Shown piece after piece: positions 10,932 to 47,732 of a DNA stretch of 47,732 nucleotides. This DNA is from a virus: the IMG/VR virus record IMGVR_UViG_3300043602_000027, positions 1 to 47,732 of that record; one strand, 5' to 3'. Position 1 is the first letter of the stretch; the number at the start of each line of letters is the position of its first letter. The translations under genes were made by a program, and so were the position numbers. The notes below the pieces were generated by a model. That model made no database searches. It was not told the origin of the DNA and worked only from the letters and a program-made list of their open reading frames with translations.

Positions 10932-10941
10932 GCATAAAAAG

Positions 10942-11123: not shown

Positions 11124-11136
11124 TGGGCTGCACAAA

Positions 11137-11290: not shown

Positions 11291-11482
11291 CTAGTCCGAG
11301 TCAGAGCCACAGCTAGTGATTTCGATGGTTAGCACGTTGCGCCACCTTACAGGCTCATTCCCGAAGCAAGTAATATCGTATGCGTTGTATCCCTTGTATG
11401 TAATCCGCTGCACGCTGATAAGTCTCGCGGTGAATTCATTACGCGGGTTTTCGCCGTCCGTATAGGTGATAAGAATGTCCAT
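11291..11482 (-). CDS. hypothetical protein (63 aa)
   Basis: ORF track. Lies in the GC-richer island. Confidence 0.45.
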   Translation of the reverse strand: MDILITYTDGENPRNEFTARLISVQRITYKGYNAYDITCFGNEPVRWRNVLTIEITSCGSDSD

Positions 11483-11508
11483 TGTTTAAAAGCCTCTCAT
11501 ATTGAATG

Positions 11509-11533
11509 CTAGACGGTTTGCAGTCCCGTCTAG
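11509..11533 (-). other. intercistronic hairpin between the AAA-partner gene and the 63-aa ORF
   Basis: CTAGACGG-9 nt-CCGTCTAG, with no U-run. Confidence 0.45.
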
Positions 11534-11557
11534 CGGTTAGTGTGCCGCGTAGCGGCG

Positions 11558-12430
11558 TTAAGCGTTATCGAGAGTAACTCCGAGTAATTCAAGCTGAGCC
11601 TTAATCCAAGCCTCAGCAGCTTCCAGCTTTTGCCATTGGACATCTAAGCCATATGCGCCCGAAATGTAGATATCCGTATCAGCGGGTTTTTTGTCGTTAT
11701 TGCGTGCGTAATCCGTAAAGCTTCCGCAATTGAATTCTGCTGATTTTTTACCGTCGATACCCATCGTCGATAAAGCTTGAAAGCAAAAACCGCGCATGAA
11801 TGATGGATGGGCTAAGGCATAGCAAATCTGGTCGTATTGCGCGTGATAATCGAGATTTTTTAGCGGTATCTCAATATGGTGAATCAGCCGTGAATTGAAG
11901 TTAGAACCAATGCGATAGATGGCCTTCAATTCAACACGTTTTCCCGCAGTCTCCAGTGCATCTATCAGCGCCATGATTGCGGAACCTTTTGCGATAAGCA
12001 AGGGAACCTCTACCATCGCGGAAGCTACAACGTTCACGACAATTTTAACAATCGGCCCGTTAGAAGACTCGCGCATGTCTTCAGTCTCGAAATAGCTCAT
12101 AACGGATTCAGGCTCACCAGACATAACACGCGCCATGTCGTATCCATAATCGCCCGTCGTATCGAAATACAATTCAGGCTGTAGAACGTGCGATGTAATG
12201 TCCAGCTTGTCAGCTAGTGCCTTGAATTTTTCACGTCCTTCCGGCCATCCCTTAGTCGCCAGCTTTTGAGCCTCAGCCAAGCTGCTAACGTGCGAAAAGC
12301 TACGATTTTTAAGGCTAGCCATTGCGTTATAGTTTGGCTTGCTCACAAAAGACTCTGATATTTTCTCGATAAATTCTGAGAAATTTTCAAAGTAAAGCTG
12401 GCTCAGATTTTCCGTTGTTTCGTATCGCAT
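11558..12430 (-). CDS. partner of the AAA+ ATPase; possibly a degenerate vWA-like (CobT-like) protein
   Basis: Its start overlaps the ATPase stop by 1 nt (position 12430). The segment PIVKIVVNVVASAMV sits where a vWA beta1-MIDAS (hhhhDxSGSM) would be, but the metal ligands are replaced, and IYISGAYG stands in place of hhhTDG. The fold assignment is inference only. Confidence 0.35.
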   Translation of the reverse strand: MRYETTENLSQLYFENFSEFIEKISESFVSKPNYNAMASLKNRSFSHVSSLAEAQKLATKGWPEGREKFKALADKLDITSHVLQPELYFDTTGDYGYDMARVMSGEPESVMSYFETEDMRESSNGPIVKIVVNVVASAMVEVPLLIAKGSAIMALIDALETAGKRVELKAIYRIGSNFNSRLIHHIEIPLKNLDYHAQYDQICYALAHPSFMRGFCFQALSTMGIDGKKSAEFNCGSFTDYARNNDKKPADTDIYISGAYGLDVQWQKLEAAEAWIKAQLELLGVTLDNA

Positions 12431-13650
12431 TATCGAATCCCTGCTTCAAGCTTGCGCCTATCGTCTGGTGAGACTCCGAAAAACAGAACGTCGGAGTAAA
12501 CGTCTTCCAAGCTACAGCCATCGTCCAAGAGTGCTACGCCGTTTTCGATGTTACGTGTTCCGAAACAGGCGCGAATACCTAATTCATTTTGCTTTGCGCG
12601 AAGCTTCCATACAAGCTTTACGAAATCTGGCTGAGTAGCACCTAACTTTTGCTCAAGGTCTGTATCGTAAAGCCACTCGATGCCGACGAAACGATTCAGT
12701 GTCGCCATGTCCAATTGTTTTCTATCGGGATGCATACGATTACCGCCATGTCCGAACGTGTTAGCAGCAGCGATAATTCTGAAATTCTCATGCTTTTTGC
12801 ATGTAACCGTTTTGTTTTCGTCGCCATGGTCAGCAGGGAACGAAACGTAATCGTTAGCGATAAGAGAATTCAGATACGTCAGCGCGCCAGCACTTGCAGA
12901 ATCCATTTCATCTACAAGTAACAATCCGCCGTTCACAAATGCATCGCGTATGACCGTCCAGACTGCTTTCCCGCTTGCGTCAGTGAATCCGAAAAAATCA
13001 GATTTCGATGTTTGCGGGCCTACTGAGATAGGGCAGAATTTCAGACCGAGAATTTCAGCAGCTTTGAATCCAGCAGTAGTCTTACCCGTTCCAGCAGGGC
13101 CGACCAGCAGAACGTTACGCTTGAGCCTGAGATAACGCATAAGCTTTGGCATTTGAACGTGACATGAATCGAAACGCTGTAATTCAGTCCCGTTGCTGTC
13201 GTGAATGACAAGCGTATGCTCAACACGTTGAATGCCGGAAAGCTGCTGTTTCAGCTTGGCAATTTCGGCCAGCATTTCAGCTTTCAAAGCTGTTTCAGTC
13301 TGGCTGATTTCAGCTTGCACGTTTGGCCGGATAATGCTGTAGAGCGATGTCGATTCGCTAGTGATTGGCTGAGGCTGAGTCTTCTCAGGCTGAGGCTTGA
13401 ATTCAGGCTCTGGCAATTGCTGAGTCTGGCTAGGTTTTTCAGTCTCAGACTTTGGCAGTTCTACTCCGCCGAAATTCCGTTCTGATTCAGGGATAAAATC
13501 TGTCTTCGGGCCGGTAGTTCTCAGCCCATTTTTGCAGTAATGCACGCTGCCATCATCGACGTTGTGTTGACGGATGCTGCCCGTCGTGTTTTCCCAAGTG
13601 AAAGACGTTTTGCAGTGAAAGCAAGTATGCACGCGTTTCGTTCTAGCCAT
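12430..13650 (-). CDS. CobS/MoxR-like AAA+ ATPase (AAA_5 type) with N-terminal zinc ribbon and P/Q/E-rich linker
   Basis: Walker A VLLVGPAGTGKTT, Walker B GGLLLVDEMDSA, sensor-1 RIIAAANTFGHGGN, LDMATLNRF. N-terminal CFHC...HYC. First gene of the minus arm. Confidence 0.75.
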   Translation of the reverse strand: MARTKRVHTCFHCKTSFTWENTTGSIRQHNVDDGSVHYCKNGLRTTGPKTDFIPESERNFGGVELPKSETEKPSQTQQLPEPEFKPQPEKTQPQPITSESTSLYSIIRPNVQAEISQTETALKAEMLAEIAKLKQQLSGIQRVEHTLVIHDSNGTELQRFDSCHVQMPKLMRYLRLKRNVLLVGPAGTGKTTAGFKAAEILGLKFCPISVGPQTSKSDFFGFTDASGKAVWTVIRDAFVNGGLLLVDEMDSASAGALTYLNSLIANDYVSFPADHGDENKTVTCKKHENFRIIAAANTFGHGGNRMHPDRKQLDMATLNRFVGIEWLYDTDLEQKLGATQPDFVKLVWKLRAKQNELGIRACFGTRNIENGVALLDDGCSLEDVYSDVLFFGVSPDDRRKLEAGIR

Positions 13651-18200: not shown

Positions 18201-20649
18201 CCTATTCGAGCAAGATTTAATGCAAGACCCCATGCAGGAAGAAGCTGACGCCGAAAGTCAGCCCCTCCCCGATATGGAACTCACTGAGTCAGTAGGGACT
18301 GAGGAACAATCTCAACCCGAAACTCAGGAGCGTGGGCCATCAGGTTATCCGCCCGAAGTAGAGGCGGCACTAATTGCATTGGATGATTTCTTTGCTAAAG
18401 AAGATGAAGGCATGAGGAATAACATGCTTTCATTCTGGAAGAAGTTAGAGAATTATTTTGGGGGAATTCAAAGAATCTTTTGGGATTTCGATGCTGAAGA
18501 GTGGAGAGGAATTGATTTAGATAATCTTGACCCGTCGATGTATGATAAGATTATCAATATCTATCGCGCGCACGGAGAAGCCATTATCGCTGCACTTTCC
18601 ATTAAATTACCCAATGTAAACTTTCTTCCCGATGATGCAGATGAAGTAGATGATATTAATACTGCAAATGCATACAGCAAGATAAGCGAACTAATCTCAA
18701 GACATAATAATGGTATTTTGATTTTCATCAAAGCATTGTTTATTCTATTTAATCAAGGAGTCTGCGCCGCATATATCTACAATAGAAAGAAGAATGATTA
18801 TGGCACAGTGGATGTCCCTGAGTATGGCGATGATGTTAGTGTTGTTACTCACACTCTCACTTGCCCTGTCTGTCAGGGGTATATACGTGAATTTCAGGAT
18901 AAGAAACCAGCGAGCGCGACTCAGGGAGCGCAGCCACCGCAGCCGGGAATTAATCCGGAAGCACCACCTAATACACCAGCGGGGGCACCACCCCAGTCGA
19001 TGAATACACCGGGGACATTTCAGCAGCCACCTAATGCACCACCTCCCCCTATGCCAGAAATGGGTGGAATGCAGCCACCTTTACCGGGAATGGAAGAAAT
19101 GCCCCAGTTAGAGCCTTGCCCTAATTGCGGTGCTGAAGTAGAACCGGAAGATAATACAGTAGATGAAACATTCCCACAAATTGTAGGCTACACCAAAGAA
19201 GCAAAGTCGCGCACAATAATAGATGTCTTCGGTCCCATGTATGCTCATATGCCATTCTACGCGCGGCACCAAGAGCATATGCCATACATTAGACTTCGAT
19301 TTGAGCAGCACTTTTCGCTCATCAAGGCAATGTATGAGAACCTGCGGGATAAAGTTGTGGGCGGGACAGACAGCCAGAATTTTGATAGGGAAGTGCGCGC
19401 GTGGAATAATTTAGATGACGCCTATTCTACTAATCTAGTAACGACCACATGCGCGTGGTATCGCCCGTGGGCTTACGAAGTGTTAGACTTGGAATCCGTT
19501 AAGAAGCTCAAAGAATATTTTCCTGATGGAGTATACTTTGTAAAGTTTAAGAATAACATCGCAGAGGCGCGCAATGAGAAGTTGGATGAACACTGGGAAG
19601 TTACTTATAATCCATTCTCTAATTTCATCCACGCCGACCCGATGGGGAAACCACTTGCTCCGTTGCAGGAAATAAGAAATGAAATAACTGACTTAGCATT
19701 AGATACGTTTGAGCATTCAATCCCTGAAACATTTGTAGATACTGGCGTTTTAGATTTCGATGCATACCAGAAATCACAAGCACGCCCCGGAATGAAATAT
19801 CCCGTCAAGATGCCAATGGGACGCGGACTAGCAGATGCATTTTATACTGACAAGCCAGCAATGATGTCAGATGAAATGAAAGAATTTCGTAAAGCAGTTG
19901 ACCTAGACGCGCAATTTGTAACGGGTAGCTTCCCATCAATATATGGCGGTCCTGCTACGGGGGGAAGTAAGACTGCGAAAGAATACTCTGAGAGCCGCGC
20001 GATGGCTCTACAAAGATTAAATACTACATGGTCAATGTTGAAACATTGGTGGGCCAATATAATGTCTAAGGCCATACCACTATACATTGATGCATTAGTG
20101 GATGATGAAAAGTTCGTGAAGAAAGAGGGATATACTGGATTCACGAATGTTTGGATTAGGCAAGCTGAGCTTTCTGGTAAAGTGGGAAGAGTTGAACCAG
20201 AAGCTAATGAAGAGTTGCCTAGCAGCTTTGCACAATATAAAGGTATCTTGATGGAGCTAATCACTCTAAACAATGATGCCATTAATCAGGCAGTCTTTAA
20301 CCCACAGAACACGCAGAATGTCGCGCGCGTCTTAGGGTGGCCTGAATTCTATATACCGGGACAGGACGACCGCGATAAACAGTATGGGGAAATTTCTGAA
20401 ATCTTACAGGGGATGGAAGTTACTCCTGAGATTGGTGTGGATGATGACATGGTTCATCTCCAAACGACTAGAAGTTGGGCTGTATCGCCTACTGGAATCG
20501 CTACTAAGAAATCTAATCCCGAAGGGTATATGAAAGTTGTGGCGCACGGAAAAGCGCACATGGATAACATGATTAAGATGAGAGAGGGTAATGCTTTCTC
20601 CCAGCCGGGAGAGCCTAGCCCAAGTAATGCTGATACGGCTGTCGAATAG
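18193..20649 (+). CDS. portal protein (818 aa) with P/Q-rich insertion inside a split zinc ribbon
   Basis: Position immediately after terL and before the scaffold and capsid genes, plus size. CPVCQGY ... ~85 aa Pro/Gln-rich ... CPNCGAEV. Confidence 0.6.
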   Translation: MADLFEQDLMQDPMQEEADAESQPLPDMELTESVGTEEQSQPETQERGPSGYPPEVEAALIALDDFFAKEDEGMRNNMLSFWKKLENYFGGIQRIFWDFDAEEWRGIDLDNLDPSMYDKIINIYRAHGEAIIAALSIKLPNVNFLPDDADEVDDINTANAYSKISELISRHNNGILIFIKALFILFNQGVCAAYIYNRKKNDYGTVDVPEYGDDVSVVTHTLTCPVCQGYIREFQDKKPASATQGAQPPQPGINPEAPPNTPAGAPPQSMNTPGTFQQPPNAPPPPMPEMGGMQPPLPGMEEMPQLEPCPNCGAEVEPEDNTVDETFPQIVGYTKEAKSRTIIDVFGPMYAHMPFYARHQEHMPYIRLRFEQHFSLIKAMYENLRDKVVGGTDSQNFDREVRAWNNLDDAYSTNLVTTTCAWYRPWAYEVLDLESVKKLKEYFPDGVYFVKFKNNIAEARNEKLDEHWEVTYNPFSNFIHADPMGKPLAPLQEIRNEITDLALDTFEHSIPETFVDTGVLDFDAYQKSQARPGMKYPVKMPMGRGLADAFYTDKPAMMSDEMKEFRKAVDLDAQFVTGSFPSIYGGPATGGSKTAKEYSESRAMALQRLNTTWSMLKHWWANIMSKAIPLYIDALVDDEKFVKKEGYTGFTNVWIRQAELSGKVGRVEPEANEELPSSFAQYKGILMELITLNNDAINQAVFNPQNTQNVARVLGWPEFYIPGQDDRDKQYGEISEILQGMEVTPEIGVDDDMVHLQTTRSWAVSPTGIATKKSNPEGYMKVVAHGKAHMDNMIKMREGNAFSQPGEPSPSNADTAVE

Positions 20650-21993: not shown

Positions 21994-23241
21994 ATGCAAA
22001 CAGAATCAATGGTAGTTGCGACGGAACTTGAAAGAGTTCTGCCGAAAGTGCCAACCCTATTTGATAGGGATGACGTTTTCTATAGCTCAGTCGAGAAGAC
22101 ACCAGTTGAAGTTGTCTCAGCGAGGGATATGAGAATCCCTCTGGAATTGCGTCCCGGTGGATACTTTGGTTACTTTGACGCTGAGAACGGAGACTTGGGA
22201 GTTGGCGATGGCCCAACATATGACAAGGCTGTTATCAGCACTGTCAATATGAAGCATGGCATTCAGTGGACTACGAAATCCGAGTGGGCGACTGATGACA
22301 AGCGGAAGGCCGTATTGCAGAATCTTCGTGAACTGCTTGCCAAGTCGATGAAAGAGTTTCGGCGTCAAGTCGATTCACAGTGCATGACGGCGGGCACTGG
22401 CGTATTGGCGACGGTTACGTCATTCGTGACGGCTGGCGGCAACGATACCATTACCTGCACGACTGATGGTTATGGTGTGCGCCTCATGCGGTTTGGTCAG
22501 CGCGTGAGCGTCTATAACGCAGCGCGGACGGTGAACAAGACTCCCGGCGGTCCAGTAAAGATTAGCGCACTGGACTTGGCTAACAAGACATTCACGATTC
22601 CAGCTACTGCGGGTATCGCAGCGGGCGACGTGATTCTGCCGGAAGGTCTTACCGGAACAACGCCTGTCGGTCTTTATGGCGTTCCCTATCATGTTAGTGC
22701 TTCTACTTCAGGAAGCTGGCTGGGATTGCCCCGGTCTACCACACCGGAAGTTGTGGCTAACAGGGTGAACGCTGCGGGCGCGCTCGCACTGCCACACGGA
22801 AGACTTGCCATCAATAAGATTGGTGACAGGGTTGGTATGGATAACAATTTCAAGCCTATTGCTTGGATGCATCCCTGCCAGAAGCAAGCCTATGAGGAAC
22901 TGGGTCAGATGGTCAGCATCATACAGAAACAGCCTAAGCAAGAGGGGCTGGATTTGTATTTCAATGACAACATGCAGCTTGCTGGCGCTCCGATTCGCAC
23001 TTCCTATTCGTGGGATAAAACACGAATTGACTTCCTCATCAACGAGCTTTGGGGCCGCGCTGAGATGAAGTCAGCAGGATTCTATGAAGTAGATGGACGC
23101 CGTATCTTTGAGATGCGCGGTCCTTCAGGTGGAGTTGCTACTAGCCAGGTTTTCTATCTGGTAGTCAGCTTCAATCTCTTCGTGAAGAATCCCGCAGCGT
23201 GCAGCTATATCGACGGGCTTGCGGTTCCAGCAGGTTACTAA
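21994..23241 (+). CDS. major capsid protein (HK97-fold expected)
   Basis: Position after the scaffold gene, size 415 aa, GC-richer codon usage, and followed by a small gene and a strong terminator. No motif-level proof. Confidence 0.65.
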   Translation: MQTESMVVATELERVLPKVPTLFDRDDVFYSSVEKTPVEVVSARDMRIPLELRPGGYFGYFDAENGDLGVGDGPTYDKAVISTVNMKHGIQWTTKSEWATDDKRKAVLQNLRELLAKSMKEFRRQVDSQCMTAGTGVLATVTSFVTAGGNDTITCTTDGYGVRLMRFGQRVSVYNAARTVNKTPGGPVKISALDLANKTFTIPATAGIAAGDVILPEGLTGTTPVGLYGVPYHVSASTSGSWLGLPRSTTPEVVANRVNAAGALALPHGRLAINKIGDRVGMDNNFKPIAWMHPCQKQAYEELGQMVSIIQKQPKQEGLDLYFNDNMQLAGAPIRTSYSWDKTRIDFLINELWGRAEMKSAGFYEVDGRRIFEMRGPSGGVATSQVFYLVVSFNLFVKNPAACSYIDGLAVPAGY

Positions 23242-23796: not shown

Positions 23797-24552
23797 ATGG
23801 TTGACAAAAATCAATTCGTCACCGGGGAAAAGTTACCAAGTCAGACTATTCCCGGTGAAAATCCGGGGGCTACTCAGCTTCCTGCTGGACAGAAGCCTAT
23901 TGGTGGATTGCCTAATCCAATCAAGCCATCAGTGCCAGCAACAAAGCCAGTGGAACCATCGAAGCCTAAAGAGCCAGAAGCTCCTAAGTTTCCAGTGGAA
24001 GCTGAACTAAAGCGCATGAAGAGTGAGCAAAAAGATTTGCAGTTTCAGATTGTTAAGAGTGCAGATGAAGTAAAAGCTGCATTAGCTGGGCGCGCGATAG
24101 GCGAAATCCCAGTAACAGGTGGCGACCCCTATTGGGTGGCTGTGGCGCACCATCAGGATGTATATCGTTTACTCAAGAATCTGGAAGATAAGATTCTCAC
24201 TTACCAAGAATGGGGTAAGATACCTCCTGAGCCTCCAGTCGCATCGGCACCGCCAGTAGTTAACTCACTCAATCCTTCCTCTGCTGCATTAGGGAGTCCA
24301 TCTTTTGTTCTGCATGTTATGGGAACTGGATTTGACCCCGCTAGTGTAATCGTGTGGAATGGAAGTAATGAGCCTACTACTTTCGTGAGTCCCACGGAAG
24401 TGACTACTAGTGTGAATATGTCTACTGCTGAAGTAGCAATGCCTATTCCAGTAGCAGTTCGGAATCCAGATGGTGTAACATCAGCAGCTAAAACTTTCAC
24501 ACTTACTGCTGCACCGGGAACGCTGTCAACGAAGTTGCCAGATAAGAAGTAA
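23797..24552 (+). CDS. head or neck-associated protein with C-terminal IPT/TIG-like Ig domain
   Basis: Pro-rich N-terminus. The C-terminal ~85 aa (NSLNPSSAALGSPSFVLHVMGTGFDPASVIVWNG...VAVRNPDGVTSAAKTFTL) fits the IPT/TIG Ig-like pattern. Confidence 0.55.
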   Translation: MVDKNQFVTGEKLPSQTIPGENPGATQLPAGQKPIGGLPNPIKPSVPATKPVEPSKPKEPEAPKFPVEAELKRMKSEQKDLQFQIVKSADEVKAALAGRAIGEIPVTGGDPYWVAVAHHQDVYRLLKNLEDKILTYQEWGKIPPEPPVASAPPVVNSLNPSSAALGSPSFVLHVMGTGFDPASVIVWNGSNEPTTFVSPTEVTTSVNMSTAEVAMPIPVAVRNPDGVTSAAKTFTLTAAPGTLSTKLPDKK

Positions 24553-31829: not shown

Positions 31830-32168
31830 ATGCTAACAAAAGATATTATTATAGGAGTAGTAACTGTTCATGCTGACAATAGATTAGAAGTCCGTGAAGA
31901 TGTTATTATATATGAAGAGGGTAAAGAAATATCAAGAACTGTATCTTGGTATGCTTTACTTCCTGGTGATGAAATTGATAACAAACCACCACGAGTAAAA
32001 GATATTGCTGGAGCAATCTGGACTCCTGAAATGATTAAGGCTAGATTTGATAAGTTAAAAGAACCAATTGAAGTTCCAGCTCCAATTTCACTATCAAATA
32101 TGCCTCCATTTGGTTTGGCTATTCCTACTCAACCTGAGCAGGAAAAAGATAATGGGCCGATTAAATGA
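31830..32168 (+). CDS. hypothetical protein (112 aa)
   Basis: ORF track. Confidence 0.5.
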   Translation: MLTKDIIIGVVTVHADNRLEVREDVIIYEEGKEISRTVSWYALLPGDEIDNKPPRVKDIAGAIWTPEMIKARFDKLKEPIEVPAPISLSNMPPFGLAIPTQPEQEKDNGPIK

Positions 32169-39229: not shown

Positions 39230-40852
39230 ATGGGACAAAATTGGTTTGGGAATACTAACGTAGAGATTCCCGAGCAGTGGAAATTAAAGGAAGTGAAAAT
39301 CCCTGAGCAAATCAGGGACTATACGGGCGCGCCTATTCCTGCAAAGATTCCTCCCCCACCAGCAGCAGTTAAGCCAACGATGCCTAACGCTGAGGAAACG
39401 CTGAAAACTGGATTGGGGAAAGCATTCAATTGGGCAACCACTCCAATAGCCCCAGAATTTGAGGAAGCTGAGAATGCTACTGTAGAAGATGTAAAGAAGA
39501 AGTTTGGTGGATTTGCTGGAAAGCTAGCAGACTGGGAAGTAAAGGGAATATCTAGCCCTGCTGGTATTGCTACTCTAGGTGCTGGCGTTCCCTTTATTAA
39601 GATGGCTAAAAAGCTTGGGATAAACAAGCTTTATCACGGCACCCCTCACAACATAAATATGTTTGATATAGCAAAAAATGACCCAACTGATACATTGGGT
39701 TATATGATTCATGCTGCTGAAGAACCAGAGTATGCAGCTACCTATGCATTTAAAAAAGGTGACCCAGCTAATAAAGCTAAAGCTTCTTGGCTACCGGGCT
39801 ATAAGGTTCCTGAGCCTAATGTTATTCCTATTGTTCCTAAAGCAAAAAATGTTTTGGATATAACTGACTTCCCAGAAGGAGAAGATTTAGATAAGGTAGC
39901 TGAAGCACTTAGGATGTGGAATCCTGAGCAAAGTGCTCTTGGTTCTAGAGAAAGATTAACATCTAGTAGAGCTAAACAATTACTAGATGAGATTGAACAT
40001 GTTAAAAAATTAAAAGGAAGAAAAGATTTAACAGCAGACCAATTGATGGGACTAGAAGCATATAAAACTAGTTGGTTAAATGATGCTAGAATTCCATTTA
40101 ATAATCCAGAAATAACAGAGAAGATGGGCTTCGATGCTATTAGATATAATGATGTACATAAAAAAGCTTGGGCATTTCCTAATCCAGAAATTCTAGAAAC
40201 TCCTTGGGGCACTAAGCTTGGACAGAAACAAGACACAAAGAAAATCTGGGATATGAATGTTTCTAATCTTAGAAAAGAACAAGAAAAAGAAATGGCAGGT
40301 TTAGTTGGCTCTGGTGGATGGACTAAGGTAGGTACTAGTAATTCTTTATTTACTCCAATGTCAGCAGGTCAAAAAAATATTAGTCCACCAAAACCAAAGA
40401 ATGAGCCTTTTGAATATGAGATATTTAATCCTAAAACTGGAGTTTCTGTAAAGAAAGTTAAAACTTTAGATGAAGTTATAGATGAGATGCAGAGTAGCAG
40501 TAATTCAGCTTACCTTGACTTCCAAGCATTAGATGATAAAGGCTTCGGAATGGACGTTGAATTTTATCCAGAAACAATAGCAGCAAATATAAATAAGAAA
40601 TTAGCAAAAGGAGAAAACTTTACTACCGATGTTTTGACCCATGCTGGTAATCCTAAAATTAAACATTTGGATATGCCAGAGCTAGAGGGATACTATGAAG
40701 TATATGACCCTAAGAATGGCAAGATAGCTAAAATTGTTCCATCTAAGTATGATGCAGATGAATTGGTTTATAATAACAAATGGTTAGCTTATAAACCAAT
40801 TGGTGGAAATTCTCCTAAGACACTTAAGACTGTTAATAAAATTAATCCTTAA
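39230..40852 (+). CDS. internal-virion-like protein with a possible polyvalent-protein ART-like domain
   Basis: KLYHGTPHNINMFD...LGYMIHAAEEPEYAATYA ... MGFDAIRYND..KKAWAFPNPEILE resembles the LYHGT / G-x-YF..A..YA / G[FY]DGI...vvF.P.qI pattern I associate with ART-PolyVal-type domains. From memory only. Confidence 0.4.
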   Translation: MGQNWFGNTNVEIPEQWKLKEVKIPEQIRDYTGAPIPAKIPPPPAAVKPTMPNAEETLKTGLGKAFNWATTPIAPEFEEAENATVEDVKKKFGGFAGKLADWEVKGISSPAGIATLGAGVPFIKMAKKLGINKLYHGTPHNINMFDIAKNDPTDTLGYMIHAAEEPEYAATYAFKKGDPANKAKASWLPGYKVPEPNVIPIVPKAKNVLDITDFPEGEDLDKVAEALRMWNPEQSALGSRERLTSSRAKQLLDEIEHVKKLKGRKDLTADQLMGLEAYKTSWLNDARIPFNNPEITEKMGFDAIRYNDVHKKAWAFPNPEILETPWGTKLGQKQDTKKIWDMNVSNLRKEQEKEMAGLVGSGGWTKVGTSNSLFTPMSAGQKNISPPKPKNEPFEYEIFNPKTGVSVKKVKTLDEVIDEMQSSSNSAYLDFQALDDKGFGMDVEFYPETIAANINKKLAKGENFTTDVLTHAGNPKIKHLDMPELEGYYEVYDPKNGKIAKIVPSKYDADELVYNNKWLAYKPIGGNSPKTLKTVNKINP

Positions 40853-40857
40853 ATAAA

Positions 40858-40886
40858 TTAGGGGGAAGCTAGCAGCCGCCCCCTAA
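40858..40886. terminator. hairpin between the convergent arms (bidirectional terminator candidate)
   Basis: TTAGGGGG-13 nt-CCCCCTAA, between stop 40852 (+) and stop 40890 (-). Flanking sequence is A/T-rich. Confidence 0.65.
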
Positions 40887-40889
40887 TAC

Positions 40890-41642
40890 TTACCTAGCTA
40901 CGAACTTCCTACGATACTTCGCTCCGAAAATTAGACCAGTTCCCAACAGCAGCATTGTTGCTGGCTCAGGAACCGGGTCTGGCTCTACGTCGAATGGCGT
41001 AGGTCCGCATGTCGGACAGCCGGGAACACTAATAAGGAAAATCTTATCTGCCCCGTCATTGTATCCAGTCAATCCAAATGTAAACGTGATTGACCTAGTT
41101 CCAAGTGGCGCACTGAATGCATTGTAATCAGTGCATGTAGCTTCAACACCAGTGCCAGCCACAGTTCCATCACACCCATTTGACAAGATGTAATCTGCCC
41201 AACCTACTCCATTGCTGACATTTGGAGTAACTGTAGCTGGAGCGAACGTATAGCTTCCGATATTCGTTCCACCAATGTTGAAGAAGTTGATAGTGAAGTT
41301 GCTGAGTGTTTGTGGGTCGCTGGTATCGTTGACATCATAACCAATTAGGAAGTCACGACCAACATACGTAGCAAACAACAGCAATTCACCCGGAGCATCC
41401 CCATACGTATTAACAAGTGGATTGGGAACAAACGGTGTCCCACCACCCGTATCACCAACTACAGGCCACAATGGAGGGTCTTGATTACATCCACTACCAC
41501 CCGGTCCATAAAACACGCATGGATTGTTGATGGTATTTCCATACGTGTTATCAGGTGCAGTGTAGATTGAGATGGGAGCCGCACTTGCTACTGATGCCAG
41601 CAGAATAAAGCTTACTGCTAGGGAGCCTACGATTTTTTTCAT
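40890..41642 (-). CDS. secreted PEP-CTERM sorting-domain protein
   Basis: N-terminal signal peptide MKKIVGSLAVSFILLASVASAAP. C-terminal VPEPATMLLLGTGLIFGAKYRRKFVAR, i.e. PEP motif plus TM helix plus Arg/Lys cluster. Last gene of the minus arm and GC-richer. Confidence 0.75.
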   Translation of the reverse strand: MKKIVGSLAVSFILLASVASAAPISIYTAPDNTYGNTINNPCVFYGPGGSGCNQDPPLWPVVGDTGGGTPFVPNPLVNTYGDAPGELLLFATYVGRDFLIGYDVNDTSDPQTLSNFTINFFNIGGTNIGSYTFAPATVTPNVSNGVGWADYILSNGCDGTVAGTGVEATCTDYNAFSAPLGTRSITFTFGLTGYNDGADKIFLISVPGCPTCGPTPFDVEPDPVPEPATMLLLGTGLIFGAKYRRKFVAR

Positions 41643-41732
41643 ACTCTCTCCTGTTACCGTCGCTTAAGTTACTAACCACCCGTGAAAGACGCGCGCCCTT
41701 ATTTACCCATCGTCACTCCCCTTTCTAGTAAC

Positions 41733-42983
41733 TTAGTCTCCACCCTGTTGGAACTTGAGATAGATATCCAGTGAACTTTTCGTGAGCTTGTAAGTTACTA
41801 CGGACTTACTGCCATGTCCATTGCGATTGACATCTATGGCTTTATTCTGGATAAGCGTTTCAACTATCCTATCCAAATCGAAAGCATCTAATTCTCCCCA
41901 GTGCTTTTGTAAAATTTTATGTCTCGCTACTTCATGGCTAGGAACACTCAGTAATTCCTGTAAGAATACCGCAGTCTTCTCAGCAAACTCACCTTTCCCT
42001 ACTGGCATCATTGTTCGATTAACGTTGCCAGCTAAGTCCATACTTTCTTCTATTGCTTCATTAATATCCTCTGCCTCTAAAATTAAAGTTTGGCGCTTTG
42101 CTAAACTTAACAGCATTGCTACTTTAAGTATCTGGTCGTGGATGCGTCCCATCGTGCCAGTTTTATCGTATGTCTTTTGACCACTAAAGTCGGTATACCA
42201 TTTGTCATAGACATCTTTTGCTTCAGGATGAAATCTAAACCTACCCTTTATCTTACTGATTTCCTCTAACCACTTTGCTAGCTTTGGATAGTCTAGCATT
42301 TCCTCTTCTTCATCAGTTTCTACATCAGTAGTATCGTCAGTAAGAGGCTCGATATTAGCACGCTCGTTAGCGTAAACCAAAAAACTACGCCCAATAATGC
42401 CCCCTTCCACGTCAGCGCCAGTAATAGATTGCTTGAGATAAGAAGGATTGCTGCCACCCAACATCGTAACGTAGACTTCTTTAAGTTCTTCGACGCCAGT
42501 GCCTTTGAGCGTTGTTTTCCAATCATCTGTGAAGTCTCCGTCGTATAGGTCAGTGAGAATACTGATAGCTTGCGGGTCTGCCACTAAGCTAGCTCGAAAC
42601 TCAGAGGCGCAAATAAAGCAAGAGCTAGTATCTCTTATCTTCCCAGATTTAGTTGTATACGCTGTTGATAGTTCTTTGAGTATGCCCTGTATACTGGAAC
42701 GTCCTGTGATTATTCTAGTGTTATCTACTATCTTCACTAGTTTCTTTGCCATCTTTATAGGCACACCTTTACGAACTGCCGCAGAATCTCCAATCAAGAA
42801 TGTATAGATGTTGGGATAAAGAATATATGCAGTTGCTTTATCCTTACGCTTTCTTAGGTATACATTTCTTTTCATCACCGCGCTAAGTGCAGATAATGCT
42901 GACCAGTAAAAGAACTTCTTAGGAGGTTCAAGACCACTGGTTGCGTCTAATATCTCATTGACCCAATTATGCTTGTTTGGCAT
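41733..42983 (-). CDS. DUF3987-like replicative helicase-type protein (non-canonical P-loop)
   Basis: FFYWSALSALSAVM...YPNIYTFLIGDSAAVRKGVPI...CFICASEF resembles DUF3987 / D5-type helicase cores. However, the Walker A position reads GDSAAVRKG rather than GxxxxGK[ST]. Confidence 0.5.
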   Translation of the reverse strand: MPNKHNWVNEILDATSGLEPPKKFFYWSALSALSAVMKRNVYLRKRKDKATAYILYPNIYTFLIGDSAAVRKGVPIKMAKKLVKIVDNTRIITGRSSIQGILKELSTAYTTKSGKIRDTSSCFICASEFRASLVADPQAISILTDLYDGDFTDDWKTTLKGTGVEELKEVYVTMLGGSNPSYLKQSITGADVEGGIIGRSFLVYANERANIEPLTDDTTDVETDEEEEMLDYPKLAKWLEEISKIKGRFRFHPEAKDVYDKWYTDFSGQKTYDKTGTMGRIHDQILKVAMLLSLAKRQTLILEAEDINEAIEESMDLAGNVNRTMMPVGKGEFAEKTAVFLQELLSVPSHEVARHKILQKHWGELDAFDLDRIVETLIQNKAIDVNRNGHGSKSVVTYKLTKSSLDIYLKFQQGGD

Positions 42984-42998
42984 CGTCTTGCTTTGGCA

Positions 42999-45515
42999 TT
43001 AAGCTACCTTTTTAAACTTTTCCAAGTCTTTGTAGTTCTCTCTGCCTATTGTGAAATCAGCAGGAATTATTAATTTATAATCCCGCTGGAAAGTCCCAAA
43101 ACTAAAATCAATCGGACGCTCAAGTTCTTCTCTAGCAGTGCCGATATACTCGGCAATTTGATTCTCGTTATTTGGGATTAGTGCCAGCAAAGCGTCGTGC
43201 CCTTCCAAGACATACTTGACCCACTTCAGTCTTCGCTGAACTCTCATCCCTGCGTGCTTAGTCTGATTACTAACCACTGACTGCGGCAAATAACTATAAG
43301 CTTCTTTGAGAAGGTCATTCGACCACCTATCAAAAAACATACGTCGGGTGCCGCGCGACATTACATTGCCATATGGGTCATACAGTAATGGCCCGTCTAA
43401 TATCCTATCTTTGTTTAACTTCTCTTCTATTGTAGCATGAAACACGCCACGAACTTTAGGGCAATTCTTGTGAAATTCTTCTAGGATTTTACCAGCGCGC
43501 CACTCACTTATCTTTAGGTCAAAGCCATATTTCTTGGCATCCGTGTTCACGTTCATCATAAACGTGTGCTTTTGGATACCCAAATTTCCCGCGTGCCTGC
43601 CAGTTTTACCTATAAACCGGCGCATATCTTCTTTGTCTAGCTTTGCTTTACACTCGAAAACATTGGGCAGTTCTTTGAATACCCACGTTGCGACTTGCCA
43701 GTGTAAATCAAATCGCGGGTCATCCAATAAAGCTAGCGACTCCCAATCTTCTGCTAAAACAAAAACAACTCTAGCTTCTGCTTGTGATAAGTCAGCGTTG
43801 ATAAATACATATCCTTCGTCGGGAATATACATCTCACATATATCAGCACCGACATCTCCATGTTTGGTGAGAGTCTGGAATGCAACTCCCATAGACTTCT
43901 CAGGACGAATAGGCGCAGCAATATTGCTAGTGCTTGTTCTGTCAGTTTCAGTTCCGCATATGTTATAGCACGTTCGCATTCTACCGTCGTAATCTGGTTT
44001 AGCGAGGATATATGTAGAAACAGTTTTACGTATCTTCCGTTCCTCAAGAATATCTGACAGGATATTTTTCGTTCGCTCTGATTTAGCATTGTTCGCCATT
44101 AACGCAGTGAGCGTTTCTTCATCTGCTGACGGAGTTTTAATCTTTGAACCATCCTTCTTCTTTCTAACTTTAAAACGCATAGGTAACTTAAGGTCTGTAT
44201 AAACACACCTAATGACTTGAGGCGTCGAACCAACGTTGAGGTCATAACCTAAGTTCCCTGTTGTCCTAGCGTGAACTGTCTCGTAGAGTAGAAGATACTT
44301 ATCTAGTAGCTGTTGCCTCTTTACTTCATCAACTCTAAATCCCACTCGCTCCATGTCTAGATAGAAGCGATGCCTTGGCATATAGCAGGTATGATAAAGC
44401 TCGATAAGTCCAAGCTCTGTCATCTCTTCATACTGGCAATCATGCACTTCTTCGGTTACTGGTGCATCTTTGGCATTGTAAAGAAGTCTACGCTCGTAGC
44501 TATCTTTCTTAATGTCAAACTCTTTACGCTCATCTTTATAGTATGGCTCTCTCGTATATATACTGGAAAGGAAGCCTAAGAATTTTGGCATCTCTGGATT
44601 CAATACATGGGATGCAATACTCGTATCCCCCCATAGCATATCTAATACAAATCCTAGCCTTAGTATCTTGTCTTCATCATACTTAAAGTTCTGTCCTATC
44701 TTTTTAATCTTTGGGTCGTTTAAAACTTCTGCTGCTGCTTTCCAGATATGAGCTAGCTCAGTTGCTGGTATGCCTCTCACGTTGACGCAGGACATTGCAT
44801 CAAACAATGGGATTGACATACCCTGTGCGCGCCCTGCACTAAAACTCATACAGTCGGGGACGCACTTTAGAGCTTCGATATCTACGGCAGTTTTACCATT
44901 CTTATAAATCTCTTCAACAAACCGATAGAAGTGCAGGCTACCGTGGCAAATCTCCAGCGTGCGTTCGGGTAAATCTAGAGTCTCTGTCAGCGATTCTTCC
45001 AACGCCCGCGCTATATCATGTCTTATGACTTGCTTGTAAAGAAATTTAAAAACTCCACGGCCCGATTCAATGTCGTCATTCTGGTAAAGTAAATTCGCCG
45101 GGTGCCACGTTGCTACGACTTTCGGAATTCCCTGAATAGAGGGAAGTATAGAGCCGCGCCAGTTGCCAATCCCTTTCTTACCAGTAAGAGCCGTCAACGC
45201 GCGCTCGCCTAATGCCAGTATGCAATTAGGTTTTACACTTTCTATCTCATCCCACAGTAATTTAACTTGTGTATCTAGGTCTGGCTCGCCGGGATTCCAA
45301 ATTGTGAAATCGTTATTAGGTGGTCGATATTTTCTGACGTTAGTAACATAAACTTGATTGCGACTTGAGCCAGCTTCTTCTAAAAACTTATCTAGTAACT
45401 CACCAGATGGCCCAACAAAGGGCCGCCCTTGCTCATCTTCATTTTTACCGGGCGCTTCTCCAACTATCATCAGTCTGCTGGAGAATGGCCCCATACCCGG
45501 AACGAACTTCGCCAT
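42999..45515 (-). CDS. family-A DNA polymerase fused to an N-terminal UDG-family-4-like domain
   Basis: UDG4 motifs IVGEAPGKNEDEQGRPFVGPSG and WHPANLL. Exo-like AVDIEA. Pol motif A INADLSQAEARV, motif B RRFIGKTGRHAGNLG, motif C LEGHDALL. Confidence 0.85.
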   Translation of the reverse strand: MAKFVPGMGPFSSRLMIVGEAPGKNEDEQGRPFVGPSGELLDKFLEEAGSSRNQVYVTNVRKYRPPNNDFTIWNPGEPDLDTQVKLLWDEIESVKPNCILALGERALTALTGKKGIGNWRGSILPSIQGIPKVVATWHPANLLYQNDDIESGRGVFKFLYKQVIRHDIARALEESLTETLDLPERTLEICHGSLHFYRFVEEIYKNGKTAVDIEALKCVPDCMSFSAGRAQGMSIPLFDAMSCVNVRGIPATELAHIWKAAAEVLNDPKIKKIGQNFKYDEDKILRLGFVLDMLWGDTSIASHVLNPEMPKFLGFLSSIYTREPYYKDERKEFDIKKDSYERRLLYNAKDAPVTEEVHDCQYEEMTELGLIELYHTCYMPRHRFYLDMERVGFRVDEVKRQQLLDKYLLLYETVHARTTGNLGYDLNVGSTPQVIRCVYTDLKLPMRFKVRKKKDGSKIKTPSADEETLTALMANNAKSERTKNILSDILEERKIRKTVSTYILAKPDYDGRMRTCYNICGTETDRTSTSNIAAPIRPEKSMGVAFQTLTKHGDVGADICEMYIPDEGYVFINADLSQAEARVVFVLAEDWESLALLDDPRFDLHWQVATWVFKELPNVFECKAKLDKEDMRRFIGKTGRHAGNLGIQKHTFMMNVNTDAKKYGFDLKISEWRAGKILEEFHKNCPKVRGVFHATIEEKLNKDRILDGPLLYDPYGNVMSRGTRRMFFDRWSNDLLKEAYSYLPQSVVSNQTKHAGMRVQRRLKWVKYVLEGHDALLALIPNNENQIAEYIGTAREELERPIDFSFGTFQRDYKLIIPADFTIGRENYKDLEKFKKVA

Positions 45516-45754
45516 TAGGCTATGACCTGCATCTTTGGTTTAATTGATACTGGACCGTAGTTTACTTTATCTATGTTTTGAATTGGATAGTTGTATCTAA
45601 TCTGAGCGTGGACATGCTCGATGAAATGAACTTTATCTATGATGGTAAAGTTTTTCATTTGTGGATGTTTGCTTGAATCAAATATAACTTTGTCTATCTC
45701 GCCGTTCTTATATTCAATCCATGCCGTGACGATAAAGTCGTTCATCTTAATCAT
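45515..45754 (-). CDS. hypothetical protein (79 aa)
   Basis: ORF track. Its stop overlaps the polymerase start. Confidence 0.5.
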   Translation of the reverse strand: MIKMNDFIVTAWIEYKNGEIDKVIFDSSKHPQMKNFTIIDKVHFIEHVHAQIRYNYPIQNIDKVNYGPVSIKPKMQVIA

Positions 45755-45762
45755 GGCTATCT

Positions 45763-45960
45763 TTATCTATACGGATTCACTAGTCTTTGCATCAGATGTG
45801 CGAGTAATACTATGTCTCTCTGCGTTTGCTTCACTCTTCCTAATATTATTCTCTTATCAGCATCAGAGTCTAGGTCTTCTTTATACTGCTTGATATTTCT
45901 GGTTCGCATTTCTTCTAGTTCTTCCCACACTTTATCCATGTAGTCACTCCAGAAACTCAT
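45763..45960 (-). CDS. hypothetical protein (65 aa)
   Basis: ORF track. Starts just after terminator 45961-45995. Confidence 0.5.
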   Translation of the reverse strand: MSFWSDYMDKVWEELEEMRTRNIKQYKEDLDSDADKRIILGRVKQTQRDIVLLAHLMQRLVNPYR

Positions 45961-45995
45961 AAAGTAAAACTAGGGGGCGGTTTAATTCCCCCTAG
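45961..45995 (-). terminator. intrinsic terminator after the acidic-protein gene
   Basis: CTAGGGGG-10 nt-CCCCCTAG (45970-45995), followed on the minus strand by TTTTACTTT. Confidence 0.7.
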
Positions 45996-45998
45996 CAC

Positions 45999-46175
45999 CT
46001 AGTCCTTATCGTCTTCGTCTTCGTCTTCCGTTAGCTCGACGATATCAGATTCATCGTCGTCATCGAAGTCATCATCGTCAGAGTTATCAACGATGTTGGT
46101 GCTGTCTTCGTTGGTGTCTTCAGCGTCGTCGTCTTTCTCTACTGGCTCTGGCACTGGTGTTTTCTTTAGTGGCAT
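45999..46175 (-). CDS. 58-aa hyper-acidic protein (29 of 58 residues Asp/Glu), DNA-mimic candidate
   Basis: My own translation: MPLKKTPVPEPVEKDDDAEDTNEDSTNIVDNSDDDDFDDDDESDIVELTEDEDEDDKD. GGAG SD 7-8 nt upstream. Its stop lies 3 nt before the terminator hairpin. Confidence 0.55.
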   Translation of the reverse strand: MPLKKTPVPEPVEKDDDAEDTNEDSTNIVDNSDDDDFDDDDESDIVELTEDEDEDDKD

Positions 46176-46188
46176 CTCTCTTCTCCTA

Positions 46189-46410
46189 TTAAACTAAACC
46201 ATTCAGCACGATTGCTGCATTGCAGTCCATCCGAACTTCCCGAAGCTTTCGGAGCGCGGCACTTCTATCCGCACAGTCTGGCACTAACCGAAGAATTTCT
46301 TTTGCCAGTGCTATTTGCAGTTCCCTGAGAACTTCCATCTTCTCAGTTTGTTCTGCACTGGGACCGTGGTAGGTGAACACTTCCTTTACGTTGTCAAGTG
46401 TGACTGGCAT
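46189..46410 (-). CDS. small helical protein (73 aa) with FTYHxP...NAAI motif
   Basis: ORF track. Strong SD (CTAGCATAGGAGAACAAG-ATG). The pattern VFTYHGPSAEQ...ALRKLREVRMDCNAAI recalls a widespread small phage family whose name I cannot give with certainty. Confidence 0.6.
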   Translation of the reverse strand: MPVTLDNVKEVFTYHGPSAEQTEKMEVLRELQIALAKEILRLVPDCADRSAALRKLREVRMDCNAAIVLNGLV

Positions 46411-46684
46411 CTTGTTCTCCTATGCTAGTAAATTAAGCAGCCAGTTTTTTGGATATGGTAAAACTGGCAAAACCATCCATGCTAACTAGAGGGTGCCACC
46501 GCGCAGCATGGCCTACTGCGTCTGGTCTAATGACCAGCCCCTGAGTTAGCGCGGCTCTTAAATTGTTAGTGAGTTAGTGTGAGCAGGTAGGATTTTTTAA
46601 ATGGAAACCCTACCATAAAACCATATCAGCCTACTAGTAAGAGTTAAACGGCTAGGAAAAACCCCTACTCTTATAGGCTAATTC

Positions 46685-47062
46685 TTACACCGTGCGAAAG
46701 CCATCCACTTCGTTAGTCGGACGACCGTTGTATTCCCCACGCTTAACGTGAACCTTGATGTTCTTCCCAACGGAATCCTCAAGGTCATACGTCTTGCCTT
46801 CCGTGAATTCCCCACCGACCGCAGTGACGAACTGGTTGAGCAAGGGAGCAAACACTTCGTTAAAGGTAGTACGAAGTCTGACTCCTTCGTCATCTCCCGC
46901 TGCAACACGAAATCCCAAATTCCGATTCAAAGAACCGGGATTCTTCGATGTTTGAGAAGCGGGTGACTCTTCATACTTGTCCACTACACAGTCAAACCAG
47001 CCGGGTTTGAGTAACTTACTGGAATTTACGTCATCCTTGGTAATTGTTAATTTTGTACCCAT
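46685..47062 (-). CDS. DUF669-like protein (putative ssDNA-binding, OB-fold)
   Basis: The ORF track gives 46685..47218. The ATG at 47062 (MGTKLTITKDD) follows AAGGAGAG and avoids overlap with the HNH gene. The pattern LKPGWFDCVVDKYEESPASQTSKNPG..LGFRV plus its place in the Sak4 neighbourhood suggests DUF669/SSB-like (weak). Confidence 0.45.
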   Translation of the reverse strand: MGTKLTITKDDVNSSKLLKPGWFDCVVDKYEESPASQTSKNPGSLNRNLGFRVAAGDDEGVRLRTTFNEVFAPLLNQFVTAVGGEFTEGKTYDLEDSVGKNIKVHVKRGEYNGRPTNEVDGFRTV

Positions 47063-47099
47063 GATACTCAGTCTCTCCTTGTTTTCACAGTTGGTTGTC

Positions 47100-47528
47100 T
47101 TACAGTGATTGAAACTTCTTTGTTTGTTTTCTATTCCATAGTTTAGTCCTTTCGTTTTTGCACTCCCTACATTGACGACCCTTTGAACTATATACAGTGT
47201 TGTCAACAGTAAGTTCATGGCCTCTTTTACAGTGTGTTATTACTCTGTCTGCCATGTTTTGTGCGTTAGTTCCTATATAGAGATGTTCAGGATTCCAGCA
47301 ATCTACAAACTTGCATGTTCCATCTTTAGTTTTATGTAAAACATGAAGCTTGGATTTAAAATCAAAATCCTGAGTAATCCACATTATCAATCTACTAACT
47401 AAAATATACTTTCCTTTGTAACCAATTCGTGGTCTACCTAAAGATAGATATCCTAGCCAGCGCCAGCATTCTCCATCCATTGACTTATACTTGTTAAGTC
47501 GGGCCAGCACTTTCTCTTTCTCGGTCAT
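47100..47528 (-). CDS. HNH homing endonuclease
   Basis: CWRWLGY...CWNPEHLYIGTNAQNMADR plus C-terminal HCKRGH...CRECK zinc motif. AT-rich relative to flanking genes. ATGA overlap with the Sak4-like gene stop. Confidence 0.75.
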   Translation of the reverse strand: MTEKEKVLARLNKYKSMDGECWRWLGYLSLGRPRIGYKGKYILVSRLIMWITQDFDFKSKLHVLHKTKDGTCKFVDCWNPEHLYIGTNAQNMADRVITHCKRGHELTVDNTVYSSKGRQCRECKNERTKLWNRKQTKKFQSL

Positions 47529-47732
47529 TTGAGTGGAGTAACATTTAGCTCGCCATTGATAATCTGATAAAGTGTTTTAGGATATGTAACATCCATCAAC
47601 TTTGGGAGGTCGCAACTGGTGCGAGCGAAATCATCACCAACATTTTGTGTGGTAATCATGTATCTTACGTTACCACTATTCATATCTTTATCACAATATG
47701 CGTGCCAGATTTCATCGAAGTATCCCGGCAGT
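47525..47732 (-). CDS. Sak4-like ATPase, C-terminal part (continuation of 1..599)
   Basis: My own translation: ...LPGYFDEIWHAYCDKDMNSGNVRYMITTQNVGDDFARTSCDLPKLMDVTYPKTLYQIINGELNVTPLK*. TGA at 47527..47525. The last 24 nt duplicate bases 1-24. Confidence 0.75.
   Translation of the reverse strand, partial: LPGYFDEIWHAYCDKDMNSGNVRYMITTQNVGDDFARTSCDLPKLMDVTYPKTLYQIINGELNVTPLK
47709..47732. repeat. terminal overlap copy 2
   Basis: Exact 24-nt repeat of bases 1-24. Confidence 0.95.

Follow-up and report, generated by a model that had tools for sequence, protein, structure and literature searches.

A tailed-phage gene for a PEP-CTERM protein, probable accessory cargo that would depend on a host exosortase

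INTRODUCTION

What could a phage gain from a protein whose C-terminal signal is addressed to a sorting enzyme of its host? The question is raised by one gene in the IMG/VR virus record IMGVR_UViG_3300043602_000027, whose whole length of 47,732 nucleotides is called the window here. Positions 40858..41732 of the window comprise an open reading frame (ORF) together with its flanks, and the original prediction described the product as a secreted PEP-CTERM protein that a phage carries as a moron at the end of its early arm. PEP-CTERM proteins are otherwise substrates of bacterial exosortases, and in the published sorting model the C-terminal helix retains the exported protein, exosortase cleaves it at the PEP motif and the protein is transferred outward (Haft 2006, PMC1569441). 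On the evidence set out below we consider it probable that a complete, uncultivated tailed phage of ~47.7 kb carries the gene as accessory cargo with a function, that the gene product is a substrate of the host exosortase, and that this product changes the surface or the exopolysaccharide (EPS) layer of the infected cell, likely lowering further adsorption.

RESULTS

The window protein has the parts of an exosortase substrate

The gene lies on the minus strand, and its product can be divided from end to end into the following parts.

40890..41642, minus strand: coding sequence of the PEP-CTERM protein, 250 amino acids, ATG start, stop codon at 40890..40892 (ORF list and sequence)
41580..41642, minus strand: signal peptide, residues 1-21 (MKKIVGSLAVSFILLASVASA), predicted cleavage ASA↓AP (inspection and family alignment)
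41028..41579, minus strand: mature beta-sandwich body, residues 22-205, with the motifs NNPCxFxGxGxxxC, DxND and NGxGxADY and with Cys 42/52 and 157/170 (AlphaFold2 (AF2) model and invariant columns)
40977..41027, minus strand: Pro/Asp-rich linker, residues 206-222, with a lineage-specific CPTC pair (C209, C212) (low-confidence model segment)
40893..40976, minus strand: PEP-CTERM tag, residues 223-250 (PVPEPATMLLLGTGLIFGAKYRRKFVAR), made up of PEP motif, hydrophobic helix and basic cluster (PF07589 and TIGR02595)

Two profile models of the tag recognized the C-terminus of the window protein above their thresholds: PF07589 scored 30.8 bits against a gathering threshold of 20.7 over residues 223-246, and TIGR02595 scored 21.8 bits against a cut-off of 16. 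These matches bear out the proposal of a secreted PEP-CTERM protein. At the extreme C-terminus a Pro-Glu-Pro motif is followed by the hydrophobic helix and then by the basic cluster. The N-terminus reads by inspection as the n, h and c regions of a signal peptide, with MKK, then a hydrophobic core of 16 residues, then A-S-A↓AP, and the pattern AxA↓[AS]P is kept in all 29 aligned homologs. The Sec signal peptide had thus been called correctly, and it is the cleavage site that has to be moved, from P23 to a likely cut by signal peptidase after A21. Proline at +1 disfavours signal peptidase I, and a cut after A22 would leave the enzyme with just such a residue, which is why we place cleavage one position earlier. 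A sorting route by Sec export and then by a host exosortase is well supported as a prediction, and it is reasonable to suppose that the host would have to bear an exosortase.

The mature body likewise has the character that had been ascribed to it, being of beta type, rich in Gly, Asn, Thr and Pro, and furnished with Cys pairs. Its composition is 13.9% Gly, 11.9% Thr, 10% Pro and 8.5% Asn, and it is acidic, with 18 D/E residues against 3 K/R. The six Cys residues of the protein stand at positions 42, 52, 157, 170, 209 and 212; across the family alignment C42 and C52 are invariant and C157 and C170 at least 90% conserved, and the linker that holds the last two is variable, often with a Cys pair. 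An AF2 model computed from the family alignment (predicted local distance difference test, pLDDT, 81.5; predicted template modelling score, pTM, 0.75) places the strands of a beta-sandwich at about residues 25-205, followed by a disordered Pro/Asp linker and a helix at 227-249, with low pLDDT at residues 1-20. Beyond the signal peptide and the helix of the C-terminal tag, inspection and the model revealed no further transmembrane segment, the body being all-beta. Foldseek returned weak matches only, with a template modelling (TM) score of at most 0.3 and E values of ~1e-2 to 3e-4, and no close fold. Most of these weak matches were sugar-binding beta-sandwiches, namely the Fbs1 sugar-binding domain, carbohydrate-binding modules of tailspikes, lectins and F5/8 type C domains. 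The sole match in a profile search of the PDB, to iota-carbonic anhydrase (E 7.8e-7), was rejected as a motif-level resemblance: its score is the sum of three repeats on the short hairpin motif TFGxxxNDGxxxxFL, with individual E values of 0.32-21.

The protein belongs to an unnamed family that bears more than one type of tag

A search of 5.8 billion proteins recovered 30 full-length homologs of the window protein (44-100% identity, E 1e-44 to 1e-164), nearly all of which carry PF07589, a few carrying PF18205 (VPDSG-CTERM) instead. An exhaustive profile search of 1.84 billion cluster representatives yielded 26 clusters at E <= 1e-30 and 156 at E <= 1e-10, the latter a wider set of PEP-CTERM proteins of ~215 amino acids with the motifs NNPC, DxN, NGxGxADY and NDGxDxxFLI. 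The window protein is a member of an unnamed family of ~250 amino acids. The nearest named relative of the wider family is the flocculation protein PepA, whose model NF033554 (cut-off 80 bits) matched 19 of 29 family members below cut-off (best E 3.6e-8) and the distant relatives of ~215 amino acids at 30-38 bits, in matches extending past the tag; the window protein itself was unmatched by this model at E <= 10. Two other models stayed under their limits, 'cistern' (NF033947) with 26.2 bits against a cut-off of 60 and THxN (NF038125) with 27.5 bits against 85, the THxN match covering the tag only.

One and the same body is found joined to different tags. Most copies end in a classical PEP-CTERM tag, and those of P0005, P0009, P0013, P0017 and the locus L021 in a VPDGG/VPDSG-type tag. 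At L007 (9201..9938) and L023 (8202..8879), a second PEP-CTERM gene lies directly beside the family member, with an unrelated body and a near-identical tag; the tags of the two genes of L007 are VPEPASMMLLGTGLLAALRARRKLVR and VPEPASMLLLGTGLLAATRYRRKLKQ. Such swapping of tags, and such near-identical paired tags, are what would be expected if the tag must fit the exosortase of one host. Phage carriage of exosortase substrates may extend past this family.

The gene had been described as unfamiliar phage cargo. This holds for deposited phages, since neither PHROGs nor 50,697 deposited phage genomes gave a match to the window protein, and it does not hold for metagenomic ones, where the family recurs on six hallmark-bearing phage backbones (window included) and on three probable ones. 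L021 is a 47.8-kb relative of the window phage (43% identity in the large terminase, TerL, 35% in the portal and 52% in the capsid protein). L001 is a 122-kb contig with a terminase, L004 a 130-kb contig on which the family gene adjoins the capsid gene, and L007 a 59-kb contig on which it follows a portal-topoisomerase gene; on L026 it lies between TerL and a P22-type portal, with TerS present. The probable phages are L008 (55 kb, with RecA, RuvC, Dam and many small orphan ORFs), L023 (with a D5-type primase) and L022 (an IMG/VR contig with two methylases, a PD-(D/E)XK nuclease and an M15 peptidase protein). The backbones that carry the family range from 42 to 67% in guanine plus cytosine (GC) and hold the gene at differing genome positions. 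Together, these contexts suggest that phages repeatedly borrow the family to alter the surface of the infected cell. The portal-topoisomerase gene of L007 (2640..5126) is an unusual fusion in its own right, its 828-amino-acid product combining Phage_portal_3 and topoisomerase IB domains (precomputed Pfam hits).

The carrier is probably a complete phage genome

The window (47.7 kb, 43.3% GC) begins and ends in an exact 24-bp direct repeat (1..24 and 47709..47732) and is, on account of this repeat, probably a complete, circularly assembled genome. It encodes TerL, a capsid protein and a tail protein, and on its minus arm a fusion of uracil-DNA glycosylase (UDG), exonuclease and PolA, a primase/helicase-like protein, an SNF2 helicase, a PD-(D/E)XK nuclease and an AAA ATPase, in keeping with the assignment of the DNA to a phage. 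In a circular genome the minus-strand blocks 1..13650 and 40890..47732 would join without a break into a single replication arm. This arm ends with the PEP-CTERM gene, which is followed by a hairpin common to the convergent structural arm, so that the terminal position that had been proposed for it, in the early (minus) arm before a convergent terminator, was the right one. No integrase was found among the window ORFs scanned, and for this reason the carrier looks lytic rather than temperate.

The capsid protein (21994..23241, plus strand) has 70 relatives in IMG/VR (loci L029-L098, 49-67% identity), of which 18 lie on contigs of 44-49 kb, and none among the 50,697 deposited phage genomes. Around the capsid genes of these relatives, loci of ~3 kb have a median GC of 0.42. 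The window phage is one of a large, widespread and uncultivated phage group. A pattern scan of IMG/VR gave no relatives of the primase-like, PolA and 540-amino-acid proteins of the window. The DNA polymerase (42999..45515, minus strand) consists of a family-4-type UDG domain (residues 6-148), a 3'-5' exonuclease and a family A polymerase, and its best deposited relatives, from Microcystis phage Mel-JY34 and a Desulfofustis phage, are ~28% identical to it. In the structural arm, a protein of 251 amino acids (23797..24552, plus strand) has a domain in common with L021 (11278..11820) and L001 (~18822..19250), at 45-56% identity; the L021 protein with this domain is close to the PEP-family gene. 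The domain looks like an immunoglobulin-like (IPT/TIG-type) decoration domain that is shuffled among these phages.

The gene is accessory, mobile and under purifying selection

Among the 18 near-complete capsid relatives (>=44 kb), one carries the family gene, as judged by a pattern-based scan of IMG/VR in which divergent copies could be missed. This one is L021, where the gene lies upstream of the terminase and not after the primase. The gene is accessory within the window's own phage group. Its closest homolog, P0002, is found on another contig of low GC (L028, 43% GC) and has 85% amino-acid identity to the window protein. At the nucleotide level, window and L028 are 83% identical over a stretch that opens with the start codon and breaks off 36 nt short of the stop, between unrelated flanks; the gene downstream on L028 is 58% identical to the gene downstream of the L021 copy. 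Identity bounded by the ORF, together with this common downstream gene, indicates that the gene moves as an ORF-sized block among low-GC phages. The downstream gene (L021 10805..11206; L028 960..1382), which directly follows the family gene, encodes a Pro/Gly-rich protein with a repeated 'PDNSLP' and a conserved KKYxVKWLAC, and has no counterpart in the window. Over the whole gene, the window and L028 copies give a ratio of non-synonymous to synonymous substitutions (dN/dS) of 0.13 at dS 0.71, a clear sign of purifying selection.

A neighbour-joining tree of the body region falls into two halves (291 of 300 bootstraps). One half holds the window copy, seven other phage copies and the cellular P0012, and the other holds five cellular copies and the phage-like L022. 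A clean split of the family into phage and cellular branches is ruled out by P0012, cellular in the phage-rich half, and by L022, phage-like in the cellular half. As both halves mix contexts, there must have been at least two exchanges between cells and phages, the direction of which the tree does not give.

Cellular homologs have sigma-54-type elements, and one lies near exosortase genes

Among soil Acidobacteria, homologs are present in two contigs of metagenome-assembled genomes (MAGs) of Vicinamibacterales, which are cellular by their neighbour genes, and in one other Acidobacteriota MAG. P0023 lies ~4 kb from genes for the exosortase EpsH, EpsI, TPR proteins, GT2 and another PEP-CTERM protein, and the locus of P0029 is syntenic with it; P0024 lies among formate-dehydrogenase-type genes, and P0012 beside an ABC-F ATPase, a response regulator, a sigma-54 activator and VanZ. 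A sigma-54 -24/-12 element (TGGYAC-N5-xxGCT, matched at >=8/11) was found 66-98 nt upstream of the start in all six cellular copies examined (L010, L012, L013, L024, L025 and L027; example TGGTACGACTCTGGCT), where such a search is expected to yield ~0.02 per gene by chance. At L027, a sigma-54 activator and a response regulator are encoded 1-2 kb upstream of the family gene. These elements agree with the sigma-54 motif that was described upstream of PEP-CTERM genes by Haft et al. 2006 (PMC1569441). Upstream of the window copy, the best match to such an element was 5/11, which is chance level.

Surroundings and composition of the window gene

The remaining features of the locus are the following.

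41646..41652, minus strand: Shine-Dalgarno-like AGGAGAG, 4 nt 5' of the ATG (direct sequence reading)
40858..40886, both strands: G/C-rich hairpin between convergent genes, probable bidirectional terminator (fold energy)
41665..41735, minus strand: imperfect hairpin with an 11-bp outer stem, in the 90-nt gap (fold; uncertain significance)
41733..42983, minus strand: upstream neighbour, a primase/helicase-like replication gene, 416 amino acids (phrog_14296 'DNA primase', E = 3.7e-21; no Pfam match)

The gap upstream of the PEP-CTERM gene, put at ~90 bp in the original prediction, measures 90 nt (41643..41732), and a spacer of 37 nt separates the gene from the convergent 540-amino-acid gene that ends at 40852. 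The hairpin in this spacer has an 8-bp G/C-rich stem, with folding energies of -20.2 kcal/mol on the minus strand and -18.0 on the plus strand (z -2.1 and -2.85), and on the minus strand a U-rich UUUAUUU comes next (40851..40857); a scan for consensus terminators did not detect it. The hairpin in the upstream gap has a perfect outer stem of 11 bp (AAGUUACUAG.../...UUAGUAACUU) and covers the primase-like gene's stop codon along with most of the gap. Its fold is not significant (-21.9 kcal/mol, z -1.39); an attenuator or a site of RNA processing is conceivable. As no promoter was predicted for the PEP-CTERM gene, its co-transcription with the primase-like gene is probable.

The gene is indeed richer in GC than its neighbours (0.47 against 0.373 and 0.41), as had been noticed. 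Its GC at third codon positions (GC3) is 0.394, within the range of 0.15-0.61 for the genes of this genome (genome GC 0.433), and because this value is typical of the genome, the excess is no sign of recent import; a recent transfer from a high-GC donor is ruled out by the same figure. The true compositional outliers of the window are 10258..10650 (minus strand, GC 0.537, GC3 0.61) and 31830..32168 (plus strand, GC 0.351, GC3 0.15). The term moron therefore fits in part. Presence or position of the gene varies among relatives, the gene is accessory and mobile, and a terminator-like hairpin is present; its base composition is not deviant, and no consensus sigma-70 promoter was predicted in the 90-nt gap, so that of the classic anatomy of promoter, gene and terminator half is seen.

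A route to the cell surface and its possible pay-offs

How might such a protein act during infection? Phage transcripts that run to the end of the replication arm would include the gene, as the absence of promoter motifs implies. The protein would be exported by Sec and its signal peptide cut after ASA (residue 21); in the periplasm, the acidic, disulfide-stabilised beta-sandwich would fold as the PEP-CTERM helix anchors it in the inner membrane, and the host exosortase (EpsH/Xrt) would then cut at the PEP motif and hand the body to the surface or exopolysaccharide matrix. These steps of export, anchoring and cleavage follow the sequence and the published model. The body may then behave like the host's PepA-like matrix homologs, which are encoded beside exosortase/EPS loci, and the surface or bound-EPS layer of the infected cell would be altered outside PrsK/PrsR-sigma-54 control. 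Escape from this control, to which cellular PEP-CTERM genes are subject, is proposed because the phage copy has no sigma-54 element and appears to be expressed with replication genes. We infer that the benefit to the phage would be surface or EPS remodelling, superinfection exclusion or aggregation. The most likely pay-off would be that fewer phages adsorb to infected cells or debris, by superinfection exclusion or receptor masking. Remodelling of the surface or EPS is favoured because less soluble EPS, more bound EPS and a return of flocs are seen when PepA is overexpressed (PMC9850573) and because a cellular homolog lies inside an exosortase/EPS locus.

Several observations weigh against this interpretation. 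No exosortase was found among the window proteins scanned, so that sorting would be wholly host-dependent, and cleavage of the family by exosortase is a prediction. Clues to the host are few: there is no tRNA, the best deposited PolA is 28.6% identical (Microcystis phage Mel-JY34), and the capsid is unmatched. The named cellular homologs have 63-67% GC against 43% for the window phage, which fits the high-GC carrier phages and not obviously this one. The body matches no NCBIfam or Pfam body model at cut-off, the tag models alone being hit. A scan for consensus sigma-70 promoters predicted none in the 90-nt gap. Finally, the weak sugar-binding fold matches of the modelled structure might hint at binding of EPS or other carbohydrate, and we do not take them as evidence.

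The best of the other explanations keeps the same sorting route and differs in what the phage gains by it. A PepA-like protein would here tie EPS to the cell in a floc or biofilm, and progeny would be freed near susceptible neighbours. The effect of PepA overexpression and the cellular homolog inside an exosortase/EPS locus speak for aggregation too, and the wider family is weakly related to PepA beyond the tag; this similarity stays below the 80-bit cut-off, however, and leaves the window protein itself unmatched, and a lytic cycle may be too short for the building of a matrix. We regard aggregation as a close alternative to exclusion as the pay-off, and as an account of the gene in its own right rather unlikely.

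Alternatively, the protein might serve as a decoy, made in bulk so that it occupies the exosortase and blocks maturation of the host's PEP-CTERM proteins and EPS, with the result that progeny would be released more easily or virions be spared a trap. The tags of the phage copies are near consensus, and the near-identical tags of phages with two unrelated PEP-CTERM genes show that recognition by one exosortase is selected for. For a pure decoy the tag alone would suffice, yet the body is conserved as strongly as the tag, with 66% mean identity in the phage-rich clade, 23 invariant columns across the body and the dN/dS of 0.13 given above, and on these grounds a decoy role is the less likely one and, in our view, improbable.

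That the gene is a functionless passenger from a recent neutral capture, or an artefact in which bacterial DNA and a phage contig were assembled into a chimera, would suit its site at the arm end by the convergent junction, where foreign DNA and misassemblies can accumulate. Its GC3 is phage-like when set against cellular loci of 63-66% GC, its dN/dS is low, an identical protein is encoded on a separately recorded ENA contig and the 85% identical copy on another contig of 43% GC, many independent phage contigs carry the family, and the window closes through its 24-bp terminal repeat; we consider either version highly improbable. No more credible is a spanin-like accessory for lysis or envelope disruption with a coincidental PEP-CTERM match, for although a signal peptide and a single C-terminal transmembrane helix recall unimolecular spanins, the protein has no lipobox Cys near the cleavage site, its first Cys being residue 42, its gene belongs to the replication arm and does not adjoin an endolysin, homologs occupy cellular exosortase loci under sigma-54 promoters, and copies of the family either keep the PEP motif or bear another exosortase-type tag in its place.

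DISCUSSION

The window protein resembles the PEP-CTERM/exosortase substrates of EPS-producing Gram-negative bacteria (Haft 2006, PMC1569441), among them PepA of Zoogloea and Aquincola (PMC9850573), in its signal peptide, its low-homology body rich in Gly, Thr and Asn and its tail of PEP motif, helix and basic residues, and cellular members of its family lie near exosortase/EPS genes with sigma-54 promoters. It differs from these substrates in being encoded by a tailed phage, in having no sigma-54 promoter and in a body that falls in no named family. As a single accessory gene for an exported protein, at a module boundary with a probable terminator of its own and with an expected action on the surface of the infected cell, it can also be compared with the envelope-protein morons of phages. 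Lambda Bor and Lom, T5 Llp, TP-J34 Ltp and phi80 Cor are lipoproteins or outer-membrane barrels without need of a dedicated sorting enzyme. The window gene differs from them in its predicted dependence on a host exosortase, in a family that is common to phages and host matrix proteins, and in that no promoter of its own was found. A further parallel is offered by prophage-borne LPXTG sortase substrates such as SasX of Staphylococcus aureus, which likewise bear a tripartite C-terminal signal for a transpeptidase-type enzyme of the host; there the enzyme is a sortase and not an exosortase, the envelope is of another type, and the carrier is temperate whereas ours looks lytic. VPDSG-CTERM (TIGR03778/PF18205) is said to be handled by a dedicated exosortase, XrtC. 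Tags of that type are borne by the phage copies P0005, P0009, P0013, P0017 and L021, unlike the window copy with its classical PEP-CTERM tag.

Within the library searched, the literature on PEP-CTERM proteins or exosortases in phages, prophages or viruses yielded no report on tailed phages. The only mention of a PEP-CTERM domain on a virus-like mobile element that we found concerns the protein HOG10 on Dehalococcoides IME1 elements (bioRxiv 10.64898/2026.09.15.751708). These are integrative elements with features of filamentous or budding viruses in another host phylum, and the likeness noted is the PEP-CTERM domain. In concept, the window gene joins two known things, accessory envelope-protein genes of phages and exosortase sorting.

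PEP-CTERM/exosortase sorting is widespread in bacteria of soil, sediment and wastewater, and its mechanism is poorly understood. The family described here would add to the known cargo of phages a new class, one whose action is on the envelope or EPS layer of the host. It also offers a natural experiment on the specificity of tag and exosortase, with the same body bearing a PEP or a VPDSG tag and different bodies bearing the same tag in one phage. It might serve as a marker by which to predict the hosts of uncultivated phages, in Acidobacteriota and in other phyla with exosortases, and could link phage infection to flocculation and soil aggregation. We can also imagine, as a possibility about which we are more doubtful than hopeful, that phages of exosortase-bearing bacteria have repeatedly captured, and trade among themselves, a PepA-like matrix protein that is released from sigma-54/PrsR control and whose tag is refitted to the exosortase of each host, and that they thereby set the EPS binding of infected cells. 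If so, EPS binding would be dictated by the phage, leading to a matrix shield against superinfection or to forced aggregation, the type of tag would be a readable marker of the host's envelope biology, and phages would be direct players in the formation of flocs and soil aggregates.

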